Origin: an uncultured Bacteroidales bacterium
GTDB lineage: Bacteria > Bacteroidota > Bacteroidia > Bacteroidales > JAGOPY01
Direction: 5' to 3'
Assembly: GCA_963701785.1 (NCBI GenBank)
Contig: CAVPBC010000003.1
Location: 481,556-545,555 of the forward strand
DNA length: 64,000 nt
Shown: piece by piece, positions 2,972 to 15,705 of the stretch
Position numbering within the stretch: the stretch's first letter is position 1
Layout of the letters: the number at the start of each line of letters is the position of its first letter
Position numbers and translations under genes: made by a program
The notes under the pieces: generated by a model
The model's database searches: none
What the model saw: the letters and a program-made list of their open reading frames with translations, nothing else
Told to the model about the DNA's origin: nothing

Positions 2972-3028
2972 TCCGTCCTGCCTGGACAGGCAAAATTTAA
3001 TGTCCGGGCTGGGCGCTGAGTGTTCGCC
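2972..3028 (-). repeat. half copy of the ~160-nt attC-like repeat family (array-distal end)
   Basis: 'tccgtcctgcctggacaggcaaaatttaatgtccgggctgggcgctgagtGTTCGCC' aligns with the right arm of the copies at 7369, 8193, 11205 and 12143. The complementary arm is absent. Confidence 0.7.
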
Positions 3029-3040
3029 AGGCAATGTTGT

Positions 3041-3601
3041 TTAATTTCGCAATATGGTTCCATTTAACTGAATATGATCCCATTGTCCAATAGGTTCGTT
3101 CTGATAATAAACCTGCATTTCATCTATCCACTCTCCTTTATAATTCCTTTGTAATATCGACTCCTTTAGAATAATACTTGTTACTTCACCGCCCATGGTT
3201 CCTTGAAAAAAATCATACCAGGTACGGTAATGACCAAGACTATCAGGAATAGTGAAATTTTCATTTTCTAATAAATTAATTATCAGTAGTTTAGAACTAT
3301 CATATTTTTCTTCAATACGTAATGCATCTATTTTCAAATTGTGGAAGCTGTTTTTTGAGATCGAGTCTAATAAAATATTTACTGTTTTCAATAAATCATG
3401 ATCATTTTTAATTTTGATATAATGGTCAACAACTGGAACAAATTTATAGGAAATATTTACTGAATCAAATATTTCCCTGGTTGAATAAAGAGCAAATTCA
3501 TTATCAACCTTGGATAAACTGTTAGTATTACAACCGCAAATAAAAACTGTGATAATGAAATATAATAGGATAGATGTAAGAAATTGTTTCATCTTAAACA
3601 T
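3041..3601 (-). CDS. hypothetical lipoprotein
   Basis: 186-aa ORF with an N-terminal signal and a lipobox-like 'FICGC'. I recognise no family. Confidence 0.6.
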   Translation of the reverse strand: MFKMKQFLTSILLYFIITVFICGCNTNSLSKVDNEFALYSTREIFDSVNISYKFVPVVDHYIKIKNDHDLLKTVNILLDSISKNSFHNLKIDALRIEEKYDSSKLLIINLLENENFTIPDSLGHYRTWYDFFQGTMGGEVTSIILKESILQRNYKGEWIDEMQVYYQNEPIGQWDHIQLNGTILRN

Positions 3602-3603
3602 TG

Positions 3604-3909
3604 TTAGGCCACGTTTTCTTTATACTTTTTGATAACCTTGAATTCGTCTCTTTTGACTGAAATTTCTTCCTCTAGATCAAAGTCATCTTGAAGTCCGAGC
3701 CAGAATTTTGCAGAATTACCAAAATAATTACTTAACCTGAGCGCAGTGTCAGCTGTAATCCTTCTTTTCCCTTTCAAAATTTCACTAATCCTGTTTTGAG
3801 GAATATTAATGTCCTTCGATAATTTATAAGCAGAGATCTTTAAAGGGGTTAAAAATTCCTCAAGTAGAATTTCTCCGGGATGTATATTATTCAACTTTAC
3901 CATATTCAT
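3604..3909 (-). CDS. higA: HigA-family antitoxin (XRE HTH)
   Basis: 101 aa. 'HPGEILLEEFL..ISAYKLSKDINIPQNRISEILKGKRRITADTALRLSNYFGNSAKFWLGLQ' is the canonical HigA pattern. Confidence 0.9.
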   Translation of the reverse strand: MNMVKLNNIHPGEILLEEFLTPLKISAYKLSKDINIPQNRISEILKGKRRITADTALRLSNYFGNSAKFWLGLQDDFDLEEEISVKRDEFKVIKKYKENVA

Positions 3910-3914
3910 GCATT

Positions 3915-4091
3915 TTAATGATAATCAATTATTTCGACATTATATGAGTGCCCATTATCCCAATGAAAAATAATCCTCCATTGGTCATTAATACGTATGC
4001 TATGAAAATCTTTTAATTCTCCTTTGAGTTTCTCTAAATTATTAGAAGGCGGAATAATTAAATCATTCAAATTCAAAGAATTATTTAACAT
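3915..4091 (-). pseudogene. higB: 5'-truncated HigB (RelE-like killer protein) remnant
   Basis: My own translation gives 58 aa, below the track cutoff: MLNNSLNLNDLIIPPSNNLEKLKGELKDFHSIRINDQWRIIFHWDNGHSYNVEIIDYH. This matches the C-terminal two thirds of HigB toxins. The N-terminal ~30 aa are missing, with an in-frame TGA just upstream. It ends 5 nt before higA. Confidence 0.7.
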
Positions 4092-4107
4092 TCTGAGTTT
4101 TCTTCAA

Positions 4108-4125
4108 GCGCGCTCGTTACCACCC
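4108..4125 (-). repeat. 18-nt remnant of a 160-nt-family attC-like site plus the core of the next cassette
   Basis: 'gcgcgctcGTTACCACCC'. The 'gcgcgctcgtta' part is identical to the end of the copy at 11351-11360. The rest of the repeat and the higB 5' end are deleted. Confidence 0.6.
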
Positions 4126-4139
4126 GTTTTGATATGAGT

Positions 4140-4397
4140 CTAATCGTAATGAAACCTGCATTTAGCGATTTGAATCTCATCATTTACGTTCCTATATATC
4201 AATCGATGTTCTTCGGTAATTCTTCTGGACCAAAATCCCTGGTACTTATGTTTTAAAGGCTCAGGTTTTCCTAAACCGGAATAGTGGTTTCGCGAAATAT
4301 CTTTCAATAAATTATTTATTCTGGCCATTATCTTTTTATCGTTCTGCTGCCAATACAAATAATCTTCCCAGGACTCTTCGACAAAAACATATTTCAT
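4140..4397 (-). CDS. yoeB: YoeB/Txe-family toxin (mRNA interferase)
   Basis: 85 aa. 'WEDYLYWQQNDKK...GLGKPEPLKHKYQGFWSRRITEEHRLIYR' is the canonical YoeB pattern. It overlaps yefM by 4 nt. Confidence 0.92.
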   Translation of the reverse strand: MKYVFVEESWEDYLYWQQNDKKIMARINNLLKDISRNHYSGLGKPEPLKHKYQGFWSRRITEEHRLIYRNVNDEIQIAKCRFHYD

Positions 4398-4648
4398 GAC
4401 TCAATCAGATCTTTTTGAAACGATGATCTATTTTTTAATTTTTCAATAGCTGAATCTAACCTCTGTTCATTAATCTTAGATGATAATTCATGAGAGGTTG
4501 CCTTGAGCGAATTATATTCTTCTAAAGACATGATAACTACACCAGTGTCTTTTCCTCGGTTAATGATCAGTGTTTCAAAATTCCTGGTCACATTATCCAA
4601 ATACCGTTTAATATCTTTACGGAATTCGGAAATTGTCGTTGTTAACAT
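4394..4648 (-). CDS. yefM: YefM/Phd-family antitoxin
   Basis: The real start is Met48 of track ORF 4394..4789 ('MLTTTISEFRKDIKRYLDNV...VIMSLEEYNSL'). It is preceded by AAAGGAG. The upstream extension runs into the attC-like site. Confidence 0.9.
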   Translation of the reverse strand: MLTTTISEFRKDIKRYLDNVTRNFETLIINRGKDTGVVIMSLEEYNSLKATSHELSSKINEQRLDSAIEKLKNRSSFQKDLIES

Positions 4649-4663
4649 ATTATAGCTCCTTTC

Positions 4664-4693
4664 TGTACAAAATAAGGTACAAATATACGTACA
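4664..4693 (-). promoter_or_regulatory. putative yefM-yoeB operator/promoter
   Basis: Three GTACA cores at 12-nt spacing (TGTACA 4664-4669, GGTACA 4676-4681, CGTACA 4688-4693), 16-45 nt upstream of yefM. The minus strand reads TATATTTG (4680-4687), matching the Bacteroidetes -7 consensus TAnnTTTG. TGTACA-type palindromes are the known YefM-YoeB operator core in E. coli. Confidence 0.5.
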
Positions 4694-4743
4694 AATAAGT
4701 AAACTATTGCATAATTTGGAAAAAATATATTTGATCCCAAAAT

Positions 4744-4877
4744 GGGTGGTAACGGTTACGTGTATGAGTAGTGGTGGAGTACGGGGCACTTTCCTGTCAA
4801 ACTACACCGAAATTGATGCGAGGTCGAATGCTCGAATACGCTACAAGCTCCGCCATTACTTATACACGATGTTATTC
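4744..4877 (-). repeat. attC-like imperfect palindrome (unique sequence)
   Basis: GGGTGGTAAC...GTTATTC. The arms 'gtgtatgagtagtggtggagt' and 'gctccgccattacttatacac' are near-complementary. Confidence 0.7.
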
Positions 4878-4987
4878 CCCTGTAATTTTATATCACTTTT
4901 TATTATTTTTAGCAGTTCCCGTTTTATGTGCACAAAATACTATCCGGAGTATCTGTTTGATAAAAGGTCCTCGCTAATCACAATCAT

Positions 4988-6670
4988 TTATTTTAGCAAT
5001 ACGACACCAATCAATAGTCCGGCAAAGAGAATACCTATACTGATCAATATCCACCACCAGAGTTTACCCCATTTAGGAATCATAATTTCCCCGTCACCAT
5101 CTGTAAGAATAGTCCATGATCGAAATTCTTTTTTTAAGGCCCAGCGTTGAAAAAGGAAAATTAATAATCCGCCCGGCAGAGCGCCCAGAACGACAATTGC
5201 CCACCAGGTCATCACGGGCAAGTATGACAGCGGCAATAAAAGAGACATATTCAGACTCATATTCACCAGTGGTAAAGCCACTGGTGTTATCCCTCCCAGA
5301 CCTATGAACGTTGTAACCAATACCAGAGGAAGGCATTGTAATAAAAATAGTCCGGCATTCTTATTGCAGACAGGAGCCAGAAAAACCATATGGAACACCA
5401 ATCCCAGAATTATTGGCAGGCTCAACATCACGGACACTTGAATTTGCCAACTAACATTCCCGGATAACATACTTAACATAAGAATTGCAATCGACACGGT
5501 GTATGAGACCACGACAGGTATAAGATTTCCAATCGTTTCAATGATGACTTTCTGACAGAAAGTCGTTTTACATCTCTTTAATGCGAAAAATCCTGCCATC
5601 AAAGCAATCGGACCTAGAAACACCACAGCGGTTATCCAAAAACGGAATCCCCTATTATATAGCCCCCTGTTGAGGAACAACAAAATCAAACTTATCAACA
5701 GGATTACAGGCCAGCTTATACCGACAATCCAGTTTGTCCGGAGGTTAGCCCGGGCCGAATGATATCGCCTGGCAGCTTCCTGCTGCACGTCCTCAGGAAA
5801 AAGTTTGCTTAGTGGCCCCGGTTCACGGGGATTGGATAGTTCGTTTTTAACATTTAACACAACAGGATGATCATATTGGAAGAAAAAATAGATATAGACA
5901 ACTCCATGAACCAAATCGGCTACCATTGTTTCAATCGTCCAGCTGGAACCTTTTTCCATATGGACGGCATCCATAATAGCTGTTGCATCCCTGAAACTTA
6001 ATGGACCCTCTTTTTCAAGCAAGGGGCCCAGCAATTCATAAGCTTTGTCATAACGCCAGCAAGGATATCCAAAACTATTGGAATGATTGGCTACATTGAA
6101 ATTTGTGGACACCAGGAATCCATCACCCGGTGGTTTTCGTGTGAACACCATTTCGCCATCTTCACCAGCACTTATAATAACAGCGTCACCCGTGGCATCT
6201 GCAAAATGCAGTTGGTCGTGCATATACGGATAGTGTTGATGGAGATTGGCCCACCTGATAACTTCCTCAACCCTGGAGCATTCATGCATTATCTGCATGA
6301 TATAATGATGGTAGTATTCTCCTTTAACCAGGATTCGCTCTTTGTGCGGATTGATATCAAATCTTGGTAATCCGTTTGCATCGTATGCCAATCCTTTCTC
6401 GTTTACCCCCTGTTGGGGATTATCCGGTGTACCAATCCATATTACTCCGTATTTGGAAGAGTCGCCCGGTTCCACCCAATAGTAGGAATCCGGATTGATG
6501 TAATCGTCATTTCCTCCGAAAAAAACACTATCTCCCTTTGATATAGTAATTATCGAACATCCGGAGTGAAAAGTCTTGGTATCAGAAGGTTCATCTGAAT
6601 AAATTTGTTGAGCACAGATTTCTAATACCGCAATTAGTATAAATAAATTAATGAGTAGAAGTTTCTTCAT
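4988..6670 (-). CDS. Ntn-hydrolase (peptidase C45 / choloylglycine-hydrolase-like) domain fused to a polytopic membrane domain
   Basis: 560 aa with a signal peptide. 'HSGCSIITI' is a candidate nucleophile Cys, followed by 'GGNDDY' and 'GVNEKGLAYD' as in C45/C59 Ntn hydrolases. From residue ~310 there are about 8 hydrophobic helices. Confidence 0.6.
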   Translation of the reverse strand: MKKLLLINLFILIAVLEICAQQIYSDEPSDTKTFHSGCSIITISKGDSVFFGGNDDYINPDSYYWVEPGDSSKYGVIWIGTPDNPQQGVNEKGLAYDANGLPRFDINPHKERILVKGEYYHHYIMQIMHECSRVEEVIRWANLHQHYPYMHDQLHFADATGDAVIISAGEDGEMVFTRKPPGDGFLVSTNFNVANHSNSFGYPCWRYDKAYELLGPLLEKEGPLSFRDATAIMDAVHMEKGSSWTIETMVADLVHGVVYIYFFFQYDHPVVLNVKNELSNPREPGPLSKLFPEDVQQEAARRYHSARANLRTNWIVGISWPVILLISLILLFLNRGLYNRGFRFWITAVVFLGPIALMAGFFALKRCKTTFCQKVIIETIGNLIPVVVSYTVSIAILMLSMLSGNVSWQIQVSVMLSLPIILGLVFHMVFLAPVCNKNAGLFLLQCLPLVLVTTFIGLGGITPVALPLVNMSLNMSLLLPLSYLPVMTWWAIVVLGALPGGLLIFLFQRWALKKEFRSWTILTDGDGEIMIPKWGKLWWWILISIGILFAGLLIGVVLLK

Positions 6671-6736
6671 TTTGGTTTTCTATTTTACTCATTTATTTTT
6701 ATTATCAATCATTCTCGGTGTTTGTTTTTTTATGAG

Positions 6737-6864
6737 GCATAACGTTTCGCTTGCAGATTCCGTGGCGGCTCGCGCAGCAGATTCTCTTCGGAAAGATAAT
6801 GATTTTGCGGTGAAAGAACTCAAAATTAGTTTAATGCCGTCATGGAATTTGCAAGCTGTTACCA
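6737..6864 (-). repeat. attC-like imperfect palindrome (unique sequence)
   Basis: GCATAAC...GTTACCA. The arms 'gcttgcagattccgtggcggc' and 'gccgtcatggaatttgcaagc' are near-complementary. Confidence 0.75.
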
Positions 6865-6884
6865 ATAGCCAGAATTTTGAATAA

Positions 6885-7340
6885 TTAACTACTTAAAGAT
6901 TTGATAATTGTTTCGACTAAAATTGTGTACTCATCTTCGCTTTGATTTATAAAACTTATATGGTTAGCTTTAATTACTTTTTCTTCGATATCCAATAGGA
7001 TATTTTTGAATTTCATGTGATCAATTTTATTCCATAAAACAGGAATTATAGGGCGATTAGAACTATTAAACATTCTAAATTCCCAATTACACCATTCGCT
7101 ATGAAGCCAATCAGGTGAAAGAAGTACAAGCAAAATTTTTGAATTATTTAGATGTGATTCGAGTATGGGTTTAAAATAATTTTTATGCGCATTTGATGTT
7201 ATATTGTCTTTGTCGTAGAATATCGAAATGTTTGAGTCTATTATTTTGAGCTTTTTTTCTAACTTATCGGCAAATTGTTTTACCGCATTAAAATTTTTCT
7301 CCTTTGACCAAGTATAACTCACGAATATTTCAATTGACAT
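6885..7340 (-). CDS. stand-alone TIR-domain protein
   Basis: 151 aa. 'IFVSYTW' (beta-A), 'FYDKD' and 'ILLVLLSPDWLHSEWCNWEF' (S-x-WC-x-x-E with the conserved Glu) are TIR hallmarks. There is no fused domain. Confidence 0.8.
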   Translation of the reverse strand: MSIEIFVSYTWSKEKNFNAVKQFADKLEKKLKIIDSNISIFYDKDNITSNAHKNYFKPILESHLNNSKILLVLLSPDWLHSEWCNWEFRMFNSSNRPIIPVLWNKIDHMKFKNILLDIEEKVIKANHISFINQSEDEYTILVETIIKSLSS

Positions 7341-7368
7341 AGTTACAGGTTATTTTTTGACTGGTTAT

Positions 7369-7529
7369 TGGTAACGCTCAGCGCAGCGCCCTGGGCCGGG
7401 TTAATTTGCACGGGCAGGCGGGCGCAAGCTAGCTCAAAGTTACTAATTCAAAGATCAACGTGACAATACCGCCCGCCTGACCGGGCAAAGTTTTTAGCGT
7501 CCGGCCTGGGCGATGCGCGAATGTTACCG
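7369..7529 (-). repeat. attC-like site, 160-nt family copy
   Basis: TGGTAAC gctcagcgcagcgccctgggccggg ... ccggcctgggcgatgcgcgaat GTTACCG. The long arms are complementary with bulges. Confidence 0.8.
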
Positions 7530-7685
7530 GCCGGCCATAGATCGTTGGAATTGCGCACTTCTTTTGCGAAAGTATTCGATAATCTGCTCTGGAGTCATAC
7601 CAGAAATTTCTTCAGTGATTTTCGCCCTGATGTCACGCATCAATTTGACTGAGTCGAAGGTTTTATTTAATGTATCAGTCTTCAT
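7524..7685 (-). CDS. small protein downstream of and overlapping the PIN gene; putative antitoxin partner
   Basis: 53 aa from 'MKTDTLNKTFDSVKLMRDIRAKITEE..'. Its ATG overlaps the PIN stop (gattATGAAGACTGA). Its stop codon TAA is the TTA of core GTTACCG. The function is inferred from context only. Confidence 0.45.
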   Translation of the reverse strand: MKTDTLNKTFDSVKLMRDIRAKITEEISGMTPEQIIEYFRKRSAQFQRSMAGR

Positions 7686-8136
7686 AATCGATAATATCTT
7701 TAGGTGAACGAATTTCAAGGGTTGGATAACCGTTTAAAATATTGATTGCATTATACCCCCTGATTCTTTTAAGATTGACGATGTGCTTAAAATTCCAGGA
7801 AACTAAAACGTCAATATTATTGATTGTGGCCAAAGCAATATGTAAACAGTCATCTAAACTGGCTTGACCAACTACATTTTCTTTAATATATTCCTGAGCC
7901 AATGAAATTACTTCTGGACTAATAGACACAATCTCAGGTTGAAGATTCAAATTATTAATCAGATCTTTAACATTTTGAGGGGCTCGAATCAATTCACTCT
8001 GAGTCAGGTCTGAGATAACCAATTCAAAATCATGATCTTGGAATTTTTTGAACAATCTTTTTGATTCGTCCTCAAATTCAGGATCGAAGTAACCTCCAAT
8101 GACCGAAGTGTCGATATAGATTTTTAGCTTTCTCAT
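7675..8136 (-). CDS. PIN-domain ribonuclease (VapC-like toxin)
   Basis: 153 aa. 'KIYIDTSVIGGY' (first acidic residue), 'DDCLHIALA' and 'LVSWNFKHI' fit the PIN fold signature. Confidence 0.8.
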   Translation of the reverse strand: MRKLKIYIDTSVIGGYFDPEFEDESKRLFKKFQDHDFELVISDLTQSELIRAPQNVKDLINNLNLQPEIVSISPEVISLAQEYIKENVVGQASLDDCLHIALATINNIDVLVSWNFKHIVNLKRIRGYNAINILNGYPTLEIRSPKDIIDYED

Positions 8137-8192
8137 TGATACAAAGATACGAAATATTGATCGAGCTAATATTGTAATATTATCTGGCTGGC

Positions 8193-8352
8193 CGGTAACG
8201 CTCAGCGCAGCGCCCTGGGCCGGGTTATTTGGCCGGGCAGGCGGGCGCCCGCTAGCTCAAAGTTACTAAATCAAAGATCAAAGTGACAATACCGCCCGCC
8301 TGACCGGGCAAAATTTTTAATGTCCGGCCTGGGCGCTGCGCTTCCGTTAGGC
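8193..8352 (-). repeat. attC-like site, 160-nt family copy
   Basis: CCGGTAAC...GTTAGGC, near-identical to the copies at 7369, 11205 and 12143. Confidence 0.8.
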
Positions 8353-9246
8353 CCCGATTGTAATTCCAGCAGATAGTAGATTTGAGTAAAATTCTAGTTT
8401 GTTTAAAGTCGAGCTAGGCAACGTATTATATTTAATTTCAGTTGCTTTAAAAGTACTTTTAAAAAGTACTATAAACTTAGTTAATAATAGCTTAGATAAG
8501 AGCATAATAAGGTGACCATGGGAATTATTTGATGAATGTCTAAGATCCATTCCATCTAAATTCATTATGCTTAATCCTGTAGTATGTGCGTGAGCCGAAA
8601 GTAGATTATAAAGACTTTTCGAATGATCTGCGTGGATTTTAGAAAAATCCATTAATTTATTCCAACCATTAAATAATCTAGGCTCACCTTTTTCAATTAT
8701 TTGCTTTTGCTGATTTGCTGTGAACTTTTTAAAATAATCTGATTCAGTAATTTTCTTTCTGAACAATCGTATTTCTTCTTGATCTTTAAGTTTCTTTTCT
8801 TTTAAGAATTCTCCTTTGTGATAATATTCATTTCTTGAAATTAATCCACTGTAAATCCAATTGTAGTATCTGAATTGTATTTCATCTTCAGTTTTTGGTT
8901 GACAATAAATGAAATCGAAAATTAAAAAATTTTCAAGTTGCGCTCTTAGTAAGATGTAAAGACCAGAAATATCAAGAAATTTAGCCTTTAATTCAATGTA
9001 TTTTGAATCAATATCTTGACCCTTTAATAACTCAAGGATGGAATTACAATTTAATATGGTTTTTGTTGCTAATGTACTGATACGGTTTTTATATTCAGGT
9101 ATTTCAATTTTGCTTGTTATCAAATGAGTTTGAAGCATTATAAGTATATCCACAAATTGCAAACTCTCTTCTGCACCATCTTTAATGTTTTGCCTAAGAT
9201 GCATCAAATAGACACTTAAAATATCATGATTCTTTTGCGAAATCAT
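8347..9246 (-). CDS. hypothetical protein (cassette cargo)
   Basis: 299-aa AT-rich ORF, helical and K/E-rich. I recognise no motif. Its stop codon lies inside core GTTAGGC. Confidence 0.6.
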   Translation of the reverse strand: MISQKNHDILSVYLMHLRQNIKDGAEESLQFVDILIMLQTHLITSKIEIPEYKNRISTLATKTILNCNSILELLKGQDIDSKYIELKAKFLDISGLYILLRAQLENFLIFDFIYCQPKTEDEIQFRYYNWIYSGLISRNEYYHKGEFLKEKKLKDQEEIRLFRKKITESDYFKKFTANQQKQIIEKGEPRLFNGWNKLMDFSKIHADHSKSLYNLLSAHAHTTGLSIMNLDGMDLRHSSNNSHGHLIMLLSKLLLTKFIVLFKSTFKATEIKYNTLPSSTLNKLEFYSNLLSAGITIGA

Positions 9247-9262
9247 AAATAATACAATTGGG

Positions 9263-9394
9263 GCCTAACGGTTTGCAGCTATGCCCTGTAGCCGTTTTAC
9301 GGGGTTCGTCACTGTCAATCGGCATAATGTTTCTGCGGGGTACGCTGTTTCAACTTGCACTTTTATAGGCTATTGGGCATAGTTGCTGTTATGC
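9263..9394 (-). repeat. attC-like imperfect palindrome (unique sequence)
   Basis: GCCTAAC (a perfect RYYYAAC) ... GTTATGC. The arms 'gcagctatgccctgtagcc' and 'ggctattgggcatagttgc' are complementary. Confidence 0.8.
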
Positions 9395-9401
9395 ACAGAA
9401 T

Positions 9402-10118
9402 TTAATATATCTCTTTCTTTTTAATTTTTAATCCACTTAGTTCATAAAGCATCATACATAATTCTTTTATCTCTGATCCTTTTCCACTTTGTCTATAAAC
9501 CATATTGTATTTGCCATTTTTTCTCGCTTCAAAAATCCACTCTGCACCATCCATTATTATCATATTACTCCATTCAACTGTAGGTATTTCCCAGAAGTTA
9601 AGATTATAGATTTTGCTTATTACATCATCCCATTGACTTTCTGTTATTTGTATTGTATCATTTTGAACTAATTTTCCAGGACTATATCCGCCTGCTCCGT
9701 TTGTTCTCTTCACAAACAGCAAGTATTCGTTGTTCCTTTTTTCAAGTCGAATAGAAATGGGATTATGAAATGTTCGTAGCCAAGGAAAACGATATGTTTC
9801 AAAATCATAGTCTTTGTATAATTTTGGTTCGTTAAGCCCTGTCAATTGTTTAGAAAACCATGTATTTACAAACAATGCTAATTCTTTGCTTTTTTGATAG
9901 AATAAACTATCCTTTTCTTGCCTATAAACATTAACAGTATCAATTAAAAGTCGTGTTGGAAAATATAAAAGATTTGTGTCTTTACAGTAATACTGGTCAG
10001 TCACATCTATTGTGTCTTTCCCATTAATAAAAGTCATTTTTTGTCCTTGAACATTTAGTATCAAGTTCATCAAAAAAAGAATCAAAATAAGTTTAGTAGG
10101 TCTTATAATTTTGTGCAT
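9402..10118 (-). CDS. hypothetical secreted protein (cassette cargo)
   Basis: Start is at Met54 of track ORF 9402..10277 ('MHKIIRPTKLILILFLMNLILNVQG', signal-like). The upstream 53 codons lie inside the repeat. The ATG sits inside core GTGCATAAC. Confidence 0.6.
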   Translation of the reverse strand: MHKIIRPTKLILILFLMNLILNVQGQKMTFINGKDTIDVTDQYYCKDTNLLYFPTRLLIDTVNVYRQEKDSLFYQKSKELALFVNTWFSKQLTGLNEPKLYKDYDFETYRFPWLRTFHNPISIRLEKRNNEYLLFVKRTNGAGGYSPGKLVQNDTIQITESQWDDVISKIYNLNFWEIPTVEWSNMIIMDGAEWIFEARKNGKYNMVYRQSGKGSEIKELCMMLYELSGLKIKKKEIY

Positions 10119-10431
10119 AACGCTCCAGCGCAGCGCCCTGGCCCGGGTTATTTGGCCGGCCAGGCGGCGGCGTGAGGATGTAAAGTTAGATATTAGTAAT
10201 GCAAATTGCAAACAGATCCCTCGCTGCGCTCGGGATGACGCGGTTGACGGATGAAAACAGAAGCGGCGCGGCACCAAGGAAGAATGTAGTTCCGACTTTA
10301 CTTTGCGCCGCGCCGCTCTGGTTTTGATCCCCTCAAGTCGTCATCCCGAAGCGCAGCGAGGGATCTTTTGCGCCCCGCCTGACCGGGCAAAATTTTTAGC
10401 GTCCGGGCTGGGTGCTGCGCGTTCGTTATGT
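10115..10431 (-). repeat. attC-like site with 160-nt-family arms and an enlarged loop
   Basis: The arms match the family. The usual 44-nt loop is replaced by ~200 nt containing a second hairpin element. Confidence 0.7.
10214..10366. repeat. nested palindromic element inside the attC-like loop
   Basis: 'agatccctcgctgcgctcgggatgacg' (10214-10240) pairs with 'cgtcatcccgaagcgcagcgagggatct' (10339-10366). There is an inner stem 'cagaagcggcgcggc' / 'gcgccgcgccgctctg'. Confidence 0.7.
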
Positions 10432-10493
10432 GTAGCAGAGCATTAAAAATTAAGTCAGGCTTAGTTCTTGATTTTCTAATTCGATTTTGAGCT

Positions 10494-10775
10494 TTACGTT
10501 AGTTCCAGTGCATGAAATATCTTGATTACCGTTCCTATAGTCATATTCCTGCTATTTTTTTCAAGTTTGGAAATTTCGGATTTATTGACCCCAATTAATT
10601 GTCCTAATTCCTCCTGGGTCATGTTTCTCTCTTTCCTTGTTTTTTTAATCATTTCCCCAAGGATCTCCATTTTTAAATCAAATTCATATTGATCCCGATC
10701 AGGGGTACCACGTTTACCAATATATTTGTCCTTGAATTGGTCCAGTGTGATTCCTTGTTGAGCTTGCTTTGCCAT
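10494..10775 (-). CDS. XRE-family HTH antitoxin
   Basis: 93 aa. 'MTQEELGQLIGVNKSEISKLEKNSRNMTIGTVIKI' is an HTH_XRE. It lies 4 nt downstream of the toxin gene. Confidence 0.8.
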   Translation of the reverse strand: MAKQAQQGITLDQFKDKYIGKRGTPDRDQYEFDLKMEILGEMIKKTRKERNMTQEELGQLIGVNKSEISKLEKNSRNMTIGTVIKIFHALELT

Positions 10776-10779
10776 TGTA

Positions 10780-11115
10780 TTATGCTTTAAAATATTCTAA
10801 TCTAATCTTCAATGCTTTTTGAATTTCTGACTTTGGAGTTTTTTGTGATTTTTTAATAAAGCCATGAGTACAAATTACCAATGTGTTTTGATTATCAGTT
10901 TTATCCCAGAATGCTAATAATCTATAATCATTTGATTGAAAGCTTGTTCTAAATTCCCATATATCATCATTCAATTTCTTGAATAAATTTGGATCGAGCA
11001 TAATTCGTGCTTTATCAATGTTGAAAACAATTTTGTTTCTTGCTTTAATGTCTAAGGTAGTCAGAAAGATCTCGACTTCACTTAAAAAGACAACATTAAA
11101 ATGCTCTATCATCAT
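10780..11115 (-). CDS. RelE/HigB-superfamily toxin (phage Gp49-like)
   Basis: 111 aa. 'DIWEFRTSFQSNDYRLLAFWDK....LVICTHGFIKKSQKTPKSEIQKA' is the Gp49/HigB-like pattern. Confidence 0.8.
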   Translation of the reverse strand: MMIEHFNVVFLSEVEIFLTTLDIKARNKIVFNIDKARIMLDPNLFKKLNDDIWEFRTSFQSNDYRLLAFWDKTDNQNTLVICTHGFIKKSQKTPKSEIQKALKIRLEYFKA

Positions 11116-11204
11116 TATTTAAGTTGAAATGCAAAAATAGTAAAGTTTCCATATAAAGCAACAATTGGATTAAAAAAAGGAAAATTTAATACTGCCCTGT
11201 TACA

Positions 11205-11363
11205 CATAACGCTCAGCGCAGCGCCCTGGGCCGGGTTAATTTGGCCGGGCAGGCGGGCGCCCGATAGCTCAAAGTTACAAAATCAAAGATCAATGTGACA
11301 ATACCGCCCGCCTGACCGGGCAAACTTTTAATTTCCGGCCTGGGCGCTGCGCGCTCGTTATGT
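11205..11363 (-). repeat. attC-like site, 160-nt family copy
   Basis: ACATAAC...GTTATGT. It is most similar to the copy at 12143. Confidence 0.8.
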
Positions 11364-11375
11364 GTAGCCTTTTTG

Positions 11376-12110
11376 TCATTTCGCGGTAATTGTGAAAGTC
11401 CCGCCTAACAAAAGTTCATAGTTGTCTTTTGTTTTGCAAAGGGCTTTCCATTCAGTTATCGAGTTATCGTCAAGAAAAAGAGAGATTATTCTTTCTCTAT
11501 CCATTAATGGTTTTATTTCAAAGTCTGTCGCTGTTTCGAGCTCCGCTAATTTTCTATCTAAAATGTCAAACACTGTTTCATTGTCTAATTCAGATACAGC
11601 TAAAATGTGATTTTTTCTCAACGGCATAAAATATGGAAAGTCGCCAAACATATTATTAGTTGTGTCCCATTTATAAAGAGAGATCAAATCAAATTTTGTT
11701 AGTCTTTTAATTGAATTCTGCCTATCCAATTCAGGAACTAATTTTTTAAATCTTGCGAATTCATTAATTGTCAGCCAAAAGGATCCTTTTTGTCGCATTG
11801 AATAAGGTGGAGCATAGTCTCCTCTGTTAGCTTCATCGAATAGTTTTTGAAATGCCGGAATAAAAAATATAAAATTGTCACATTGTCTAATGGCGACCCA
11901 ATTTCCAGAAGCACATTGGTAGATTCCACACTCGTTGCAGATTATAGTTTGAAAAATTTGTTCATCTTCAATTTCCCCGTCTAATGCCTCAACTATATTT
12001 ATAAAATCTTCGCCATCAACTGTCAAAACTGTGAAATTCGCCATTCCTTGTCCAGAAGAGGTAAAGTCATATTGTTTTTTATAAGTTCCGAAGTTTGTTG
12101 ATGTCCACAT
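11376..12110 (-). CDS. hypothetical protein (cassette cargo)
   Basis: 244-aa intact ORF with a Cys cluster 'CNECGIYQCASGNWVAIRQC'. I recognise no family. Confidence 0.6.
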   Translation of the reverse strand: MWTSTNFGTYKKQYDFTSSGQGMANFTVLTVDGEDFINIVEALDGEIEDEQIFQTIICNECGIYQCASGNWVAIRQCDNFIFFIPAFQKLFDEANRGDYAPPYSMRQKGSFWLTINEFARFKKLVPELDRQNSIKRLTKFDLISLYKWDTTNNMFGDFPYFMPLRKNHILAVSELDNETVFDILDRKLAELETATDFEIKPLMDRERIISLFLDDNSITEWKALCKTKDNYELLLGGTFTITAK

Positions 12111-12142
12111 TATGTTATTCTAGAGCCAATATAAAAGGTTAC

Positions 12143-12302
12143 ACATAACGCTCAGCGCAGCGCCCTGGGCCGGGTTAATTTGGCCGGGCAGGCGGGCGCC
12201 CGATAGCTCAAAGTTACTAAATCAAAGATCAACGTGACAATACCGCCCGCCTGACCGGGCAAAATTTTAATGTCCGGCCTGGGCGATGCGCGTCCGTTAT
12301 GT
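12143..12302 (-). repeat. attC-like site, 160-nt family copy
   Basis: ACATAAC...GTTATGT. Confidence 0.8.
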
Positions 12303-13197
12303 GTAGCCTTTTTGTCATTTCGCGGTAATTGTGAAAGTCCCGCCTAACAAAAGTTCATAGTTGTCTTTTGTTTTACCAAAGTGGCATTACATTCAGTTAC
12401 TGAATTATAGTCAAGAAAAAGAGATGATTATTCCTCTTCATTGCTATCCATTAATGGTTTTATTTCAAAGTCTGGTTCGCTGTTTCGAGCGATCCGCTAA
12501 TTTCATCTATTTGCTTAAAGATAGGTCAATCGACACTGTTTCAATATGTCATAATTCAGCATAGCAGCTAAATGTTATTTCTCAATGGCATAAAACTATG
12601 GAAAGTCGCCAAACATTTTATTAGTTGTAATCCCATTTATAAAGAGAGATCATAATCAAATTTTGTTAGTCATTTTAATTGAATTCTGCCTATCCAATTC
12701 AGGAACTAATTTTTTAAATCTTGCGAACCTTCATTAATTGTCAGAAGCCGTTAAAAGGATCGCTTTTATTGTTGCAAGAGTTGAATAAGGTGGATGCCTA
12801 TAGTCTCAACACTGTTAAAAACCACTGCTTCAATCGATCCATATTTTTGACAATAGCCAAAAATAGCTGAGTGAAAAAGATAGCGATTAAAATGAATTTC
12901 GTCACATTGTCTAATGCGCCATGACGGCTGCATATTCCCAGAAGCACATTGTGTACGATTCTCACTGTCAATCGTTGCAGAATGTATCAGCGTGAAAAAT
13001 TTGTTCAACTTGCAATTTTACAGTCTAATGGCCATCAACTATATGTTATCACAAAATCTTAACCATCATACTGTCAAAACTGTGAAATTCGCCATTCACT
13101 TGTTCATGAAGCAGGTAAAGTCATATTGTTTTTTATAAGCTCCGAAGTTTGTTGATGTCCACATTATGTCTATTCTAGAGCCAATATAGAAGGTTAC
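12303..13197 (-). pseudogene. decayed paralogous copy of cassette 11376..12110
   Basis: The first ~75 nt and last ~80 nt are (near-)identical to cassette 11364-12142. The interior is alignable by eye but carries many substitutions and 1-10-nt insertions (909 vs 793 nt). Only short ORF fragments remain. Confidence 0.8.
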
Positions 13198-13301
13198 ACA
13201 TAACGGTTGGCCGCTAAAACCAGTGCGTGGAACATATTAGGGATCGCATTAAGCGATTCCGAGGTATTGACCAGCATTAGGTTTTTAGCGGCATGTTAGC
13301 T
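13198..13301 (-). repeat. attC-like imperfect palindrome (unique sequence, 104 nt)
   Basis: ACATAAC ggttGGCCGCTAAAACC ... GGTTTTTAGCGGCatg GTTAGCT. Confidence 0.7.
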
Positions 13302-13544
13302 GATGTATTCCATTGTCTTTTTATAAATGTTTGAATACCATGAAAATTTCAGAATATATCCTCTTAAATATTGATCTCTATCAACTAAGGACTGCAAAAA
13401 CAATCACCCACAAGCAATACAAATGGATTATCAGAAGGATCCAGTAAAACTACTCTCCAAAGCATAAAGCCAAAGTATAATTTTGGTTCGTAACCGTCAA
13501 TTGTCAGACAAAGCACAAAGTATTACAAGCATTGCTGTTTGCCT

Positions 13545-13758
13545 TTATAAACCATTTTTGATAAATGGTTTATATTTGTTTTGCCTACAAGTATAAGGTA
13601 GCATGTAAAAGCCGAATGGTATTGCAATATCGGCAAAGTAGCTATGAAAATGGCTATGTACAGTATTCACTGCAGCCCATATCGTGTCTCCAATTATAAA
13701 GAGGGCTGCAATTGTAAGTAACGTGATAATCTACTATTAGTTTATTTTGTTGTTTCAT
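13545..13758 (-). pseudogene. frameshifted small membrane-protein gene (decayed cassette)
   Basis: My own translation: 'MKQQNKLIV' then a frame change into 'IITLLTIAALFIIGDTIWAAVNTVHSHFHSYFADIAIPFGFYMLPY..'. The unit is bounded by GTTAGCTGATG (13295) and ..TATGCTAAC (13790). Confidence 0.35.
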
Positions 13759-13880
13759 ATATTTTGAAAAGGAATCATATCTATGCTAACGTTTGTGCAA
13801 ACGCACTGGTCTTGTTATATCATATCCATGCGGTTAAAGAAGTCATGTTACACGCCATCAATTGGTGTGTATCTTGACCT

Positions 13881-14181
13881 TTATACTGCCCTGGATTCCA
13901 ACGATGCCATAAGTGAAATGTCTTCATCTATTTTTTTCCAATGTATCCCTTAGCCCGACGGAGTAACCTCAAAATCCTGTAAATCCTCTTCTGTAGCTAC
14001 CACAAGGCGTGGCGACAAATCCCTTAAATTATATTTATTTTCCTTACCATCGACTTTAAGAATCAGCCATGGCGTGGATAAATGTACTTGATCTATGCTT
14101 AAAATAGATTTCATTGCTCTAAAGATAATTAAAAATTTCATACCATCTCCTCCAACCGGATTCTCTTAAAATAGATGGCAT
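13881..14181 (-). pseudogene. remnants of a DUF4160/DUF2442 gene pair
   Basis: 'MPSILRESGWRRW..' (from 14181) resembles a DUF4160 N-terminus and stops after 20 codons. Track ORF 13950..14141 ('LILKVDGKENKYNLRDLSPRLVVATEEDLQDFEVTPSG') is DUF2442-like. An in-frame TAA at 13950-13952 is followed by 'GIHWKKIDEDISL', the expected continuation. Confidence 0.5.
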
Positions 14182-14208
14182 AAACTGCTTAATCTTTGCT
14201 CCAATAAT

Positions 14209-15312
14209 TCATTCCAAATCCAAATTATCAAACGGACTTTTTATCTTATCTAGCCCTCGCTTGGTTATATGTGTGTAAATCTCTGTTGTCTTAGGACTCT
14301 GGTGACCCAATAATGATTGTATATAACGTAAATCTGTACCATGCTCAAGCAAATGGGTCGCAAAACTGTGCCTTAAGGAATGTACTGTTGCTTTCTTTTT
14401 AATACCGGCTTTGTGTTTGGCCAGCCTGAATACTTTCTGAACACTGGTCGGCGAATATTGCCCACCGAATTGCCCTTCAAACAACCATTCCCTTGGTTTG
14501 TACATCTTGAAATATTCACGCAATAAGGTCAATACCCTTACTGACAATATCGTTACCCTGTCCTTTTGACCCTTTCCCTGTTTTACAATCACCAGCATCC
14601 TTTTAGAATCAATATCATGGATCTTTAAATTGATCATCTCACCCAATCTTAGGCCTGTTGAATAAATTAGTGATAACATGGCCCTGTGTTTCAGGTTTTT
14701 TGCACATTTTAACAGCATGGCTACCTCCTCCTCACTCAATACATTCGGCAAAACTTTCGGCTTTTTCGGCCGCTGGATGTAATATGTCTTCACGGGCCGG
14801 CCCAAAACCTGCTCGTAGTAAAATTTGATGGCATTGATCGACTGGTTCTGGTAGGAGATGCTCACATCCCTCTTTTCAATTAGGTATAGCAAATACTCCC
14901 TGACCTGCTCATCGGTTATCTTTTCGGGATCCAGGTCCTTGTAATAAACAAGAAATTCCTGCATCATCGACCTGTAGGTCCGGATCGTATTCGGACTGTA
15001 ATTCTTCAGCAACATCGTTTTCACAAATTCTTCCGGGACCAAATCTACCTTCCCCTCTTCCCCTTTTCCCCTCTTCTCCTGGTCTCCCGGTCTCCCGGTC
15101 TCCTCTTCAAACGTCAGGAATCCTTCAAATTTCAGATTCAGCTTCTCCACGCCACCCGCCTGCGTTGCCACATGCCAGCACCTCTCCTTCGGGTTCCACC
15201 TCGCCCCTGGAATGGTTTTAATTAAATCAATAATCTCCCTGTCGTAAGGGAAATGGAGCTTTAACCGCTCTTTGCCTTCTATAAGGCCTTTTTCAATAGT
15301 TATCTTTTTCAT
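14209..15312 (-). CDS. tyrosine site-specific recombinase (Xer-like catalytic domain with an extra ~95-aa N-terminal domain)
   Basis: 367 aa. 'STGLRLGEM' (Arg I), 'KGQKDRVTIL', 'HSLRHSFATHLLEHGTDLRYIQSLLGH' (H-x-x-R, H) and 'TEIYTHI' (catalytic Tyr). The N-terminus has 'IPGARWNPKERCWHV'. An octamer-repeat-encoded linker gives 'ETGRPGDQEKRGKGEEGK'. Confidence 0.9.
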   Translation of the reverse strand: MKKITIEKGLIEGKERLKLHFPYDREIIDLIKTIPGARWNPKERCWHVATQAGGVEKLNLKFEGFLTFEEETGRPGDQEKRGKGEEGKVDLVPEEFVKTMLLKNYSPNTIRTYRSMMQEFLVYYKDLDPEKITDEQVREYLLYLIEKRDVSISYQNQSINAIKFYYEQVLGRPVKTYYIQRPKKPKVLPNVLSEEEVAMLLKCAKNLKHRAMLSLIYSTGLRLGEMINLKIHDIDSKRMLVIVKQGKGQKDRVTILSVRVLTLLREYFKMYKPREWLFEGQFGGQYSPTSVQKVFRLAKHKAGIKKKATVHSLRHSFATHLLEHGTDLRYIQSLLGHQSPKTTEIYTHITKRGLDKIKSPFDNLDLE

Positions 15313-15561
15313 CCTGTTTCAGATTTTTTTACCACTAATAGGAACATTAGTGGTCAATAGAAAGCACAATAGGGTTGAATGCTATTTATAACCTGATATT
15401 CAATACTTAACAGTAAGTTACACGGAGGACCGCAGAGTTATTCGCAGAGATACATTGAGAATACGCTCTGTGACCCTCTGTGAAAAACTCTGTGAACCTC
15501 TGTGAGAACTTATTCTTATACTTAATCCGGAAAATTGAAAAAAATACCCGGTGGGAGAGGG

Positions 15562-15689
15562 GAAAAGGTGAAAAGGTGAAAAGGTGACAAGGTGACAAGG
15601 TGAAAAGGAGACAAGGAGACAAGGAGACAAGGAGAAGAGGAGAAGAGGAGAAGAGGAGAAGAGGAGACAAGGAGAAATGGGGAAATGTT
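15562..15689. repeat. tandem octamer array (~16 x GAMAAGGW)
   Basis: gaaaaggt x3, gacaaggt x2, gaaaagga, gacaagga x3, gaagagga x4, and so on, read directly. It lies upstream of the recombinase gene. Confidence 0.9.
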
Positions 15690-15705
15690 AAAAGTAATTT
15701 AAAAT

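Follow-up and report, generated by a model that had tools for sequence, protein, structure and literature searches.

An integron-like gene-cassette array in a Bacteroidales chromosome is headed by a tyrosine recombinase that lacks the IntI insertion

Introduction

The window described here is a stretch of 64,000 nucleotides from an uncultured Bacteroidales bacterium (GenBank assembly GCA_963701785.1, contig CAVPBC010000003.1, positions 481,556 to 545,555), and between zupT and a gene for a tyrosine recombinase it contains a row of AT-rich units that lie on one strand and are separated by GC-rich, hairpin-forming sites. Most probably the region is a chromosomal, sedentary platform of gene cassettes which functions as an integron does. 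The two ends of a unit are complementary to each other in a unit-specific manner, the sites keep one structure while their sequences vary, single units recur elsewhere among different neighbours, and a simple attI-like site lies between the recombinase gene and the first unit. 'Integron-like' is the right term for such a region; 'integron' in the strict sense is not, because the insertion specific to IntI, which the accepted definition requires, is absent from the recombinase. The recombinase belongs to a large clade related to Xer and IntI proteins, found in Bacteroidota and in other phyla that are mostly of the Fibrobacteres-Chlorobi-Bacteroidetes (FCB) group. We lean, if only slightly, towards a wider reading, in which the window represents a second, previously unrecognised lineage of integron-type gene capture that is widespread in Bacteroidota and neighbouring, mostly FCB, phyla. 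This lineage would carry out structure-specific recombination of folded single strands without the IntI domain, by means of a long, mismatch-marked R box and an N-terminal domain that may be HARP-like, and would be the native source from which ISCR2 picked up tet(X3) together with the 3' part of a recombinase gene and its attI.

Integrons are the textbook machine of gene capture and are defined by IntI with its special domain, and surveys that use this definition report Bacteroidota to be almost without them. In the IntegronFinder papers the Bacteroidetes are represented by In0 only and, later, by one complete integron, in Salinibacter (PMC9024848), and a 2024 preprint lists Bacteroidota among the clades 'previously found without any integrons' (10.1101/2024.07.02.601686). 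A classification of tyrosine recombinases recognises a subgroup, called 'integron-like', whose insertion 'is not fully conserved', and describes no arrays (PMC8138268). Our literature search, the coverage of which is incomplete so that an earlier description elsewhere is possible, found no description of the present system, which is apparently a widespread and so far undescribed variant of the integron principle.

In this paper we describe the array, the anatomy of its sites, its recombinase and the relatives of all three. The original prediction, made from the letters of the window alone, had been an integron-like array of gene cassettes. Its architecture and the mobility of its cassettes stand, and an attI-like site is added here; the array is not a classical integron, as the recombinase is not IntI and the geometry of the sites is unlike that of attC sites as generally known.

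Materials and methods

The criteria applied for an integron were those of Messier & Roy 2001 and of IntegronFinder, namely IntI, attI and attC. Comparison loci and contigs, taken from genomes, plasmids and metagenomes, carry L-numbers. For the comparison of unit ends, the 16 nt to the right of each site were matched with the 16 nt on the left of every site, the latter in reverse complement. R boxes were rebuilt by pairing the 5' arm of a site with the start of the cassette to which it belongs; the set covered 88 distinct cassettes, drawn from the window, from genomes and from metagenomes. Covariation between the two arms of the R box was scored on an 84-row alignment and compared with 500 shuffles and with controls in which the partner was slid.

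Results

The array and its cassettes

The array, read on both strands, comprises about 11 cassettes, and its features are as follows, from the recombinase gene towards zupT (aa, amino acids; ORF, open reading frame; HTH, helix-turn-helix; s1 to s9, sites; 'ends', matches in the end comparison).

14209-15312, minus strand: tyrosine recombinase of 367 aa (Pfam PF13495 and PF00589).
13950-14141, minus strand: 63-aa ORF between the recombinase gene and the attI-like site; no Pfam match.
13788-13803, minus strand: attI-like simple site, CGTTTGCACAAAC|GTT; motif conserved in 17 other loci.
13204-13789, minus strand: cassette 1, decayed, without a long ORF; site s9 at 13198-13301; ends only 10/16.
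12149-13203, minus strand: cassette 2, a decayed duplicate of cassette 3; site s8 at 12143-12302, of the 160-nt family; ends 14/16.
11210-12148, minus strand: cassette 3, 244-aa ORF (11376-12110) of unknown function; site s7 at 11205-11363; ends 15/16.
10121-11209, minus strand: cassette 4, Gp49/HigB-like toxin (10780-11115) and HTH antitoxin (10494-10775), both from Pfam; site s6 at 10115-10431, with a nested palindromic insertion at about 10196-10370; ends 14/16.
9269-10120, minus strand: cassette 5, 232-aa ORF (9402-10100) of unknown function; site s5 at 9263-9394; ends 14/16.
8199-9268, minus strand: cassette 6, 299-aa ORF (8347-9246) of unknown function; site s4 at 8193-8352; ends 15/16.
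7375-8198, minus strand: cassette 7, PIN protein (7675-8136; Pfam PIN) and 64-aa ORF (7524-7718); site s3 at 7369-7529; ends 14/16.
6743-7374, minus strand: cassette 8, TIR-domain protein (6885-7340; Pfam TIR_2 and ThsB_TIR); site s2 at 6737-6864; ends 14/16.
4753-6742, minus strand: cassette 9, 560-aa membrane protein (4988-6670); site s1 at 4744-4877; poor ends, 10/16.
4116-4752, minus strand: cassette 10, YefM antitoxin (4394-4660) and YoeB toxin (4140-4397), from NCBIfam and Pfam; its attC-like site is deleted but for an 18-nt remnant at 4108-4125; ends 15/16.
2972-4115, minus strand: distal unit or units, with truncated HigB (3915-4091), HigA (3604-3909) and a 186-aa ORF (3041-3601); at the distal end a truncated, decayed family site (2972-3028) abuts the zupT flank.

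The array is bordered by zupT on one side and by the recombinase gene on the other, with rsmE past the latter, and it is chromosomal, since the recombinase gene sits on a contig of 836 kb. All nine palindromes that the original prediction had placed between the units are there. They are GC-rich and imperfect, each starting with TAAC|G and ending with GTTA, and with the two remnants they separate units whose main ORFs are, as had been claimed, on the minus strand without exception and rich in AT (33.7% GC in the array minus its sites, 54% in the sites and 45% in the remaining window). Comparison of repeats likewise agreed with the division of the sites into one family of about 160 nt (7369-7529, 8193-8352, 10115-10431, 11205-11363 and 12143-12302, with the half site 2972-3028 and the 18-nt remnant 4108-4125) and four sites (4744-4877, 6737-6864, 9263-9394 and 13198-13301) that have no sequence kinship and yet the same architecture. 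A 23-nt core of the family has five matches in the window, all in the array and none in the rest of the 64 kb, where 0 would be expected by chance.

The cargo, according to family searches, is rich in toxin-antitoxin genes, as predicted: HigA with a truncated HigB, YefM-YoeB, and a Gp49-like toxin with an HTH antitoxin. Beside these there are a PIN protein, which has a small ORF as its partner, a protein with a TIR domain and several proteins without a known function, of which one is duplicated. This last is the 244-aa cassette, one copy of which has decayed; the tandem duplicate is real, and both copies have a same-family hairpin on the same, left side, which had also been pointed out. Stop codons within the TAAC core, a further detail of the prediction, are those of the ORFs 8347-9246 and 7524-7718.

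A deletion at 3915-4125 took the 5' part of the higB-like gene and almost the whole of the adjoining attC-like site, and so fused two cassettes and left the 18-nt remnant behind. In the loop of the family site at 10115-10431 a near-perfect palindromic element, GATCCCTCGCTGCGCT...AGCGCAGCGAGGGATC, is nested at 10196-10370, and a similar palindromic insertion was seen in a family site of a related strain (L087, 1-120). Possibly it is a small mobile element with these hairpins as its targets.

Unit ends and anatomy of the attC-like sites

The claim that the two ends of each unit are unit-specific inverse complements was borne out for eight of the nine units of the window, in which cognate ends (the right flank of one site and the left flank of the next) matched at 14-15 of 16 positions. 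Non-cognate pairings gave 5-11/16, apart from cross-matches among three near-identical neighbouring units (11210-13204). The exception is the unit with the 560-aa ORF (4871 to 6743), the ends of which match at 10/16. Good pairs match for 10 nt and then break at position 11, where the plus strand has G at the left end of the unit and T at the right end, so that in every good pair of the window this mismatch is G·T on the plus strand and C·A on the minus strand. Read along the plus strand, a site begins with a unit-specific arm ending in TAAC, continues with about 5 unpaired nt (GCTCA or GGTTN) and a long imperfect stem-loop, and closes with 1-4 unpaired nt and then GTTA with a unit-specific arm. 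Overall the sites range from 43 to 304 nt in length (median about 125 nt).

The same anatomy was found in the R boxes of the 88 cassettes. Pairs 1-3 are invariant (GTT/AAC) and pair 4 is mostly A-T or G-C; at pairs 5-10 and 12-16, three or all four of the Watson-Crick types occur. On the coding strand, pair 11 is A·C in 81/88 cassettes, and it is never a standard pair in the 84-row alignment. In that alignment 88.7% of cells are paired (54.7% in shuffles) and the covariation score is 0.807, against 0.158 for shuffled sets, 0.10-0.14 for slid controls and 0/500 shuffles that reached it, totals which are inflated because the set was picked on end matches of at least 13/16 and one sequence family is prevalent. 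Selection on end matches cannot create a mismatch at one particular position, and the pattern at pair 11 is thus not its product. Several sites of Nibribacter koreensis (L034, 12727-20530) show, beside the A·C at pair 11, another mismatch that recurs, T·T at pair 9.

Folding of both strands of each site, which the original prediction had suggested as a check, gave a more stable plus strand, opposite to the ORFs, in all nine window sites (by 2.6-8 kcal/mol). Among 91 reconstituted sites the non-coding (bottom) strand was more stable in 86, with a mean difference of 5.8 kcal/mol (Wilcoxon p = 7e-16), and contained 299 G·T pairs as against 103 on the top strand. On the bottom strand the spacer after AAC (median 5 nt) is longer than the spacer before GTT (median 3 nt) in 88/91 sites, and the base preceding G|TT on the coding strand is C in 82/91. 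This strand asymmetry argues for a single-stranded DNA substrate, and on thermodynamic grounds the bottom strand would be the recombined one. A role of the hairpins in mRNA is unlikely, because the transcript carries the sequence of the less stable strand. Among the attC-like sites no conserved extrahelical bases were identified. The longest ORF lies on the recombinase strand in 89/94 cassettes, the median length of which is 715 nt.

The attI-like site

The start of the first cassette was located through the complement of the 5' arm of the first site, and it is preceded by the attI-like consensus CGT(T/A)T(G/A)CAC..AC|GTT. In 17 other loci the motif lies 66-1165 nt downstream of the recombinase stop codon, mostly within 500 nt, and the search returned 0 matches upstream and 1 on the opposite strand. 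It is usually preceded by a short ACGCNA...TNGCGT palindrome and an ATATAAC-like motif. When four loci were aligned, intergenic homology ran as far as GTT and unrelated sequence followed right after, which is the expected signature of a junction between attI and a cassette. In the window the crossover would fall at the C of plus-strand position 13790.

The 63-aa ORF between recombinase gene and attI-like site has an identical 63-residue counterpart in a Logan contig (L001). In L118 (2260-3223), and also in L099, L120 and L003, about 960 nt separate the recombinase gene from the attI-like site, and this segment, inspected by eye, seems to code for a Gp49-like toxin and an HTH protein; its equivalent in the window holds the 63-aa ORF.

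Relatives of the recombinase and their arrays

The recombinase family contains at least about 8000 clusters at E <= 1e-20, which are mostly named XerD or site-specific integrase. Among species-representative genomes there are at least 521 relatives, most of them in Bacteroidota, including Lentimicrobiaceae (73% identity), Bacteroidales, Cytophagales and Flavobacteriales; others were found in Neomarinimicrobiota, Cloacimonadota, Delongbacteria, Ignavibacteriae and one cyanobacterium. Where there is DNA downstream, the sites in it have the architecture of the window sites and lie on the recombinase strand. Cassettes in chains, their ends complementary in a cassette-specific manner, follow in L008, L009, L010, L034, L048, L049, L051, L060, L061 and L078, the named hosts being Nibribacter koreensis (L034, with at least 12 sites of about 55 nt each), Arundinibacter roseus (L060) and Belliella aquatica (L078). 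Links in such chains number 48 on the recombinase strand as against 6 on the other, and those 6 are all weak (12/16).

In 31/65 loci from metagenome-assembled genomes (MAGs; L002-L081) the contig stops no more than 650 nt downstream of the recombinase gene, compared with 3 that stop as near upstream, the effect that repeat arrays have on short-read assemblies. Arrays are thus systematically lost from short-read assemblies and bins. An exact-sequence look-up of the window recombinase gave only one extra contig, of 1.8 kb, from which no strain comparison at the proximal end came.

Full-length homologues are also found on plasmids of Bacteroidota. On a plasmid of Chryseobacterium sp. SNU WT5 (L159, NZ_CP041688.1, 8968-19008) an array lies behind a recombinase that the Prokaryotic Genome Annotation Pipeline (PGAP) names 'site-specific tyrosine recombinase/integron integrase', and the array holds an IS110 transposase and, in opposite orientation, a group II intron reverse transcriptase. 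Classical integrons have group II introns that target attC sites, which this intron recalls.

The recombinase is related to Xer and IntI and lacks the IntI insertion

The recombinase starts with a conserved N-terminal domain (residues 1-70) containing an IPGARW...KCWH motif. There follow a low-complexity linker (residues 72-87), which in an alignment of 15 family members is variable, in length also, and then a SAM-like core-binding domain and the catalytic domain, the catalytic tyrosine of which is Y346. It scored 235.9 bits on the NCBIfam model NF040815, 'XerA / integron integrase' (cut-off 220), 147 on NF011946 (cut-off 435) and about 190 on each of the XerC and XerD models (cut-offs of about 330). 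On the IntI model TIGR02249 it reached 223.9 bits, matched in two stretches and under the cut-off of 265. The best match to a solved structure was archaeal XerA (5hxy, 157 bits). The alignment to VchIntIA (2a3v, 149 bits) skips chain residues 212-243, and since this is where the IntI-specific insertion is expected, the insertion is absent; it was found in none of the 15 aligned family members.

The N-terminal domain is predicted by AlphaFold2 with a predicted local distance difference test score of 90, and its top fold match in the Protein Data Bank is the HARP substrate-recognition domain of SMARCAL1, a weak match (E 0.13, probability 0.75, template modelling score 0.47-0.50). Pfam HARP matched below threshold in 12/15 family members, and we tentatively call the modelled domain HARP-like. 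Used alone as a query of the protein database, the domain retrieved only 7 short stand-alone ORFs of 61-123 aa, a number that is not a measure of family size; these ORFs may be frameshifted recombinase genes.

An ordinary integron, with a divergent or degenerate IntI and ordinary attC sites, would account for a good deal of this. A tyrosine recombinase lies beside a simple attI; the cassettes are co-oriented, mostly promoter-less and end in an imperfect AAC...GTT palindrome; the 3' arm is split at G|TT, so that the start of a cassette pairs with its own 5' arm. As in classical integrons, too, the sites keep their structure while their sequence varies, the non-coding strand folds better, one site family dominates per host lineage, toxin-antitoxin genes and genes of defence type (TIR, PIN) abound in the cargo, and one array (L159) has insertion sequences and a group II intron within it. 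The bit scores on the IntI model and against VchIntIA speak for the same view, as do the short Nibribacter sites, GCCTAAC...GTTGGGT, which come close to RYYYAAC/GTTRRRY. We nevertheless consider an ordinary integron unlikely. The insertion of about 35 residues near patch III is missing from the window protein and from all 15 aligned members, the IntI model score stays under its cut-off, and what is conserved instead is an extra N-terminal domain of about 70 aa with a variable linker. A classical attC site has an R box of about 7 bp, an L box and a central spacer that stays unpaired, and the R''-L'' arm of its bottom strand carries extrahelical bases. That fine structure is not the one seen here, where the R box extends over about 16 bp and includes a fixed mismatch (pair 11), the bottom strand has its longer spacer on the 5' arm and the sites are often long. 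The hosts differ also, being Bacteroidota, Neomarinimicrobiota, Cloacimonadota and related groups, and surveys report integrons to be almost absent from Bacteroidetes and these groups. IntegronFinder would formally call such an array a cluster of attC sites without an integron integrase (CALIN) if its attC model matched, since no IntI is present; here, however, a conserved recombinase and an attI-like site head the arrays, and the cluster is not an orphan.

A second alternative, which we judge very unlikely, is that the units are Xer-dependent modules, like pdif modules or integrative mobile elements exploiting Xer, which host enzymes of the XerC/D type would recombine as double strands, the hairpins being cruciforms or irrelevant. 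The recombinase is above the NCBIfam XerA cut-off, its best sequence and structure matches are Xer proteins, and it has in common with them a two-domain catalytic core without the IntI insertion. XerCD can moreover recombine the folded single-stranded site of CTX phage, a precedent showing that in principle no IntI domain is needed. Against this, there are no dif-like sites of 28 bp and no tie to dif or to the resolution of chromosome dimers. There are instead structured elements of 43-304 nt with covarying stems, in arrays with an attI-like site, and the recombinase linked to them is a dedicated one with an extra N-terminal domain. The asymmetry of G·T and A·C makes sense only for a single folded strand. 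The pdif modules of Acinetobacter plasmids resemble the cassettes in being discrete, bounded by recombination sites, found in varied contexts and often made up of toxin-antitoxin or resistance genes. Their sites, however, are double-stranded XerC/XerD sites of 28 bp in alternating orientation, unlike the long hairpins of one orientation that a dedicated recombinase would use here.

Cassettes recur in other contigs with breaks at the core

Cassette 5, that is, the site 9263-9394 with the 232-aa ORF, is 98% identical in a metagenome contig (L149) in which its neighbours differ on both sides. The identical stretch opens with the TAAC of this site (9266-9269) and runs out just after the TAAC of the next site (10118-10121). 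Cassette 7 (PIN module) recurs at 86% identity in L147, where another neighbour stands beyond GGTAAC, and cassette 3 has 75% nucleotide identity to a cassette in L132. From the sharing of cassettes 5 and 7 it follows that the mobile unit is an ORF together with the hairpin downstream of it on the coding strand. The functional orientation, which the original prediction had placed on the minus strand with each attC downstream of its ORF, agrees with the breakpoints of cassette 5 at the two TAAC cores, and in the comparison with other sequences, which it had named as a check, cassettes 5 and 7 have new neighbours and breakpoints at the cores. As to its crossover at G|TT, 4 of the 6 measurable right ends of shared cassettes (>=88% identity) lie 2-3 nt from the G of GTT, and homology of the attI region stops at GTT; at the left ends the match continues into the site before, the family sequence of which is shared. 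In a related strain (L087) the zupT flank is kept (zupT is 92% identical) while the distal cassettes differ, with divergence at 2976/2977. Judged from these sequence comparisons, the cassettes appear to be independently mobile with boundaries at the core.

The prevalence of one 160-nt family, and its abundance in metagenomes, might suggest that the hairpins are repeats of the repetitive extragenic palindromic (REP), bacterial interspersed mosaic or miniature inverted-repeat transposable (MITE) type, or else terminators, in an AT-rich island beside an unrelated recombinase. One site, too, has a nested palindromic insertion, and some recombinase homologues have no array. We hold this to be highly improbable. 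A scan of metagenomes with the 23-nt core gave 76 contigs, many with 2-4 copies and 0 with copies on both strands, and three of the 76 also bear a recombinase of 72% identity, upstream of the sites. As to the check for REP or MITE behaviour, within the 64-kb window the family occurs in the array alone; it keeps to one strand per contig and to the downstream side of the recombinase where the two occur together. The ends of a unit are complementary across a whole ORF, which neither target-site duplication nor terminators can yield; four sites share the architecture without being related in sequence; it is the non-transcribed strand that folds better; the sites travel with the upstream ORF; and the tie to recombinase and attI-like site is found again in different families and phyla. 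That each ORF unit is a small transposon with 16-bp terminal inverted repeats (GTTA...TAAC), for which the hairpins are merely targets, is scarcely credible: the unit-specific inverted ends formally resemble such repeats, but the hairpin s5, unique in sequence, moves with its ORF in L149 (98%) and the left breakpoint lies beyond it, the tandem duplicate in the window has the hairpin on the same side, and family searches found no transposase in the units.

tet(X3) on Acinetobacter plasmids

A search of plasmid proteins found an N-terminally truncated homologue of 221 aa on many Acinetobacter plasmids; over residues 130-366 of the window protein the two are 59.5% identical. This homologue is the gene product called 'xerD/tpnF' in the published ISCR2-xerD-tet(X3)-res unit (PMC8635130), and with the intact recombinase of a Flavobacteriales MAG (L067) it shares 87% identity. 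The example locus is on Acinetobacter indicus plasmid p80-1-2-tetX3 (L158, NZ_CP041297.1, 5001-7150). The DNA past the stop codon of the truncated 'xerD' shows homology with the attI regions of L067, L066 and L048 that reaches as far as ...GGCGTATAGCCACTT|GTT. In the plasmid locus the attI-like site is conserved to this GTT (locus position 5886), and tet(X3) starts 18 nt further. The GTT is followed by GTTATGTGCCATTTTTGA and then by the tet(X3) start codon, with the expected A at position 11. About 25 nt beyond the stop codon of tet(X3) there is AAAAACGGCTACTAAC, which pairs with the cassette start at 12/16 positions, including A·C at position 11, and behind this arm there is a hairpin of about 45 nt and modest quality. 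The R box of tet(X3) would be GTTATGTGCCATTTTT / AAAAACGGC...TAAC. It looks as if tet(X3) was the first cassette at the attI of such a platform and was taken up with the 3' part of the recombinase gene. Two papers on the context of tet(X) genes (PMC8635130 and PMC7494873) contain no such reading of the tet(X3) unit.

Discussion

The platform that we think most probable would work in the following way. On the minus strand the recombinase gene is followed by the attI-like site and by some 11 cassettes, each a promoter-less ORF or toxin-antitoxin pair with its own structured attC-like site. A complete site, its split 3' arm restored from the start of the cassette, consists of a cassette-specific R box of about 16 bp ending in AAC/GTT, an asymmetric internal loop and a long, variable hairpin. 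The recombinase would bind two such sites folded from the bottom strand, or one of them and attI, and exchange strands at AA|C (G|TT on the coding strand). A circular cassette, its R box closed by its own two arms, would be released and could re-insert at attI or at another attC. The mismatch-marked long R box and the N-terminal domain, which may read branched or hairpin DNA, would replace the recognition of extrahelical bases that the insertion performs in IntI. The structure of the sites and its covariation, the strand asymmetry, the linkage to the recombinase, the conserved attI-like site and the sharing of cassettes with breaks at the cores are shown by the comparisons; catalysis by this recombinase, the single-stranded substrate, the circular intermediate and the roles of pair 11 and of the N-terminal domain are what we infer.

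Several points weigh against this reading. Its support is comparative, and circular cassettes and the activity of the recombinase are predictions from it. The covariation set was selected as described, with many sites of one sequence family. The window array itself looks partly decayed, cassettes 1 and 2 being degenerate and two sites deleted or truncated, and it may no longer be active. The palindrome that usually lies 5' of attI is not evident in the window. The HARP assignment consists of two sub-threshold signals. Finally, no recognisable array or hairpin sites are present in the 10 kb downstream of the recombinase genes of L030, L035, L039, L041 and L055. The linkage of recombinase and array is therefore not universal, and some members of the family may be array-less (In0-like) or have another function.

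If the platforms are active, a large part of the bacterial world has a cassette economy of its own that current tools have missed, with a pool of cassettes rich in toxin-antitoxin and defence-type genes. Recognition of folded single-strand sites would then have been solved twice with different protein parts, which would provide a natural comparison for attC recognition and may provide a new tool for structure-specific recombination. Activity would also give the 'xerD-tet(X3)' unit, which spreads tigecycline resistance, a concrete and testable origin, and the system, if this is true, would be a direct source of clinically relevant resistance cassettes.

Minor features of the window

A scan of the whole window with Rfam at gathering thresholds, which is not specific to attC, gave no match, and the GC skew of the window is near zero and uninformative about the direction of replication. 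Just upstream of the recombinase gene, at 15534-15701, there are about 20 tandem units of 8 nt (AGGTGAAA / AGGAGACA / AGGAGAAG). They are the inverse complement (84% over 61 nt) of repeats inside the gene, at 15049-15109, that encode the linker, and the two arms are 491 nt apart. Paired, these arms could make a large stem and so sequester the gene's 5' part, or else the repeats could be a tract prone to slippage.

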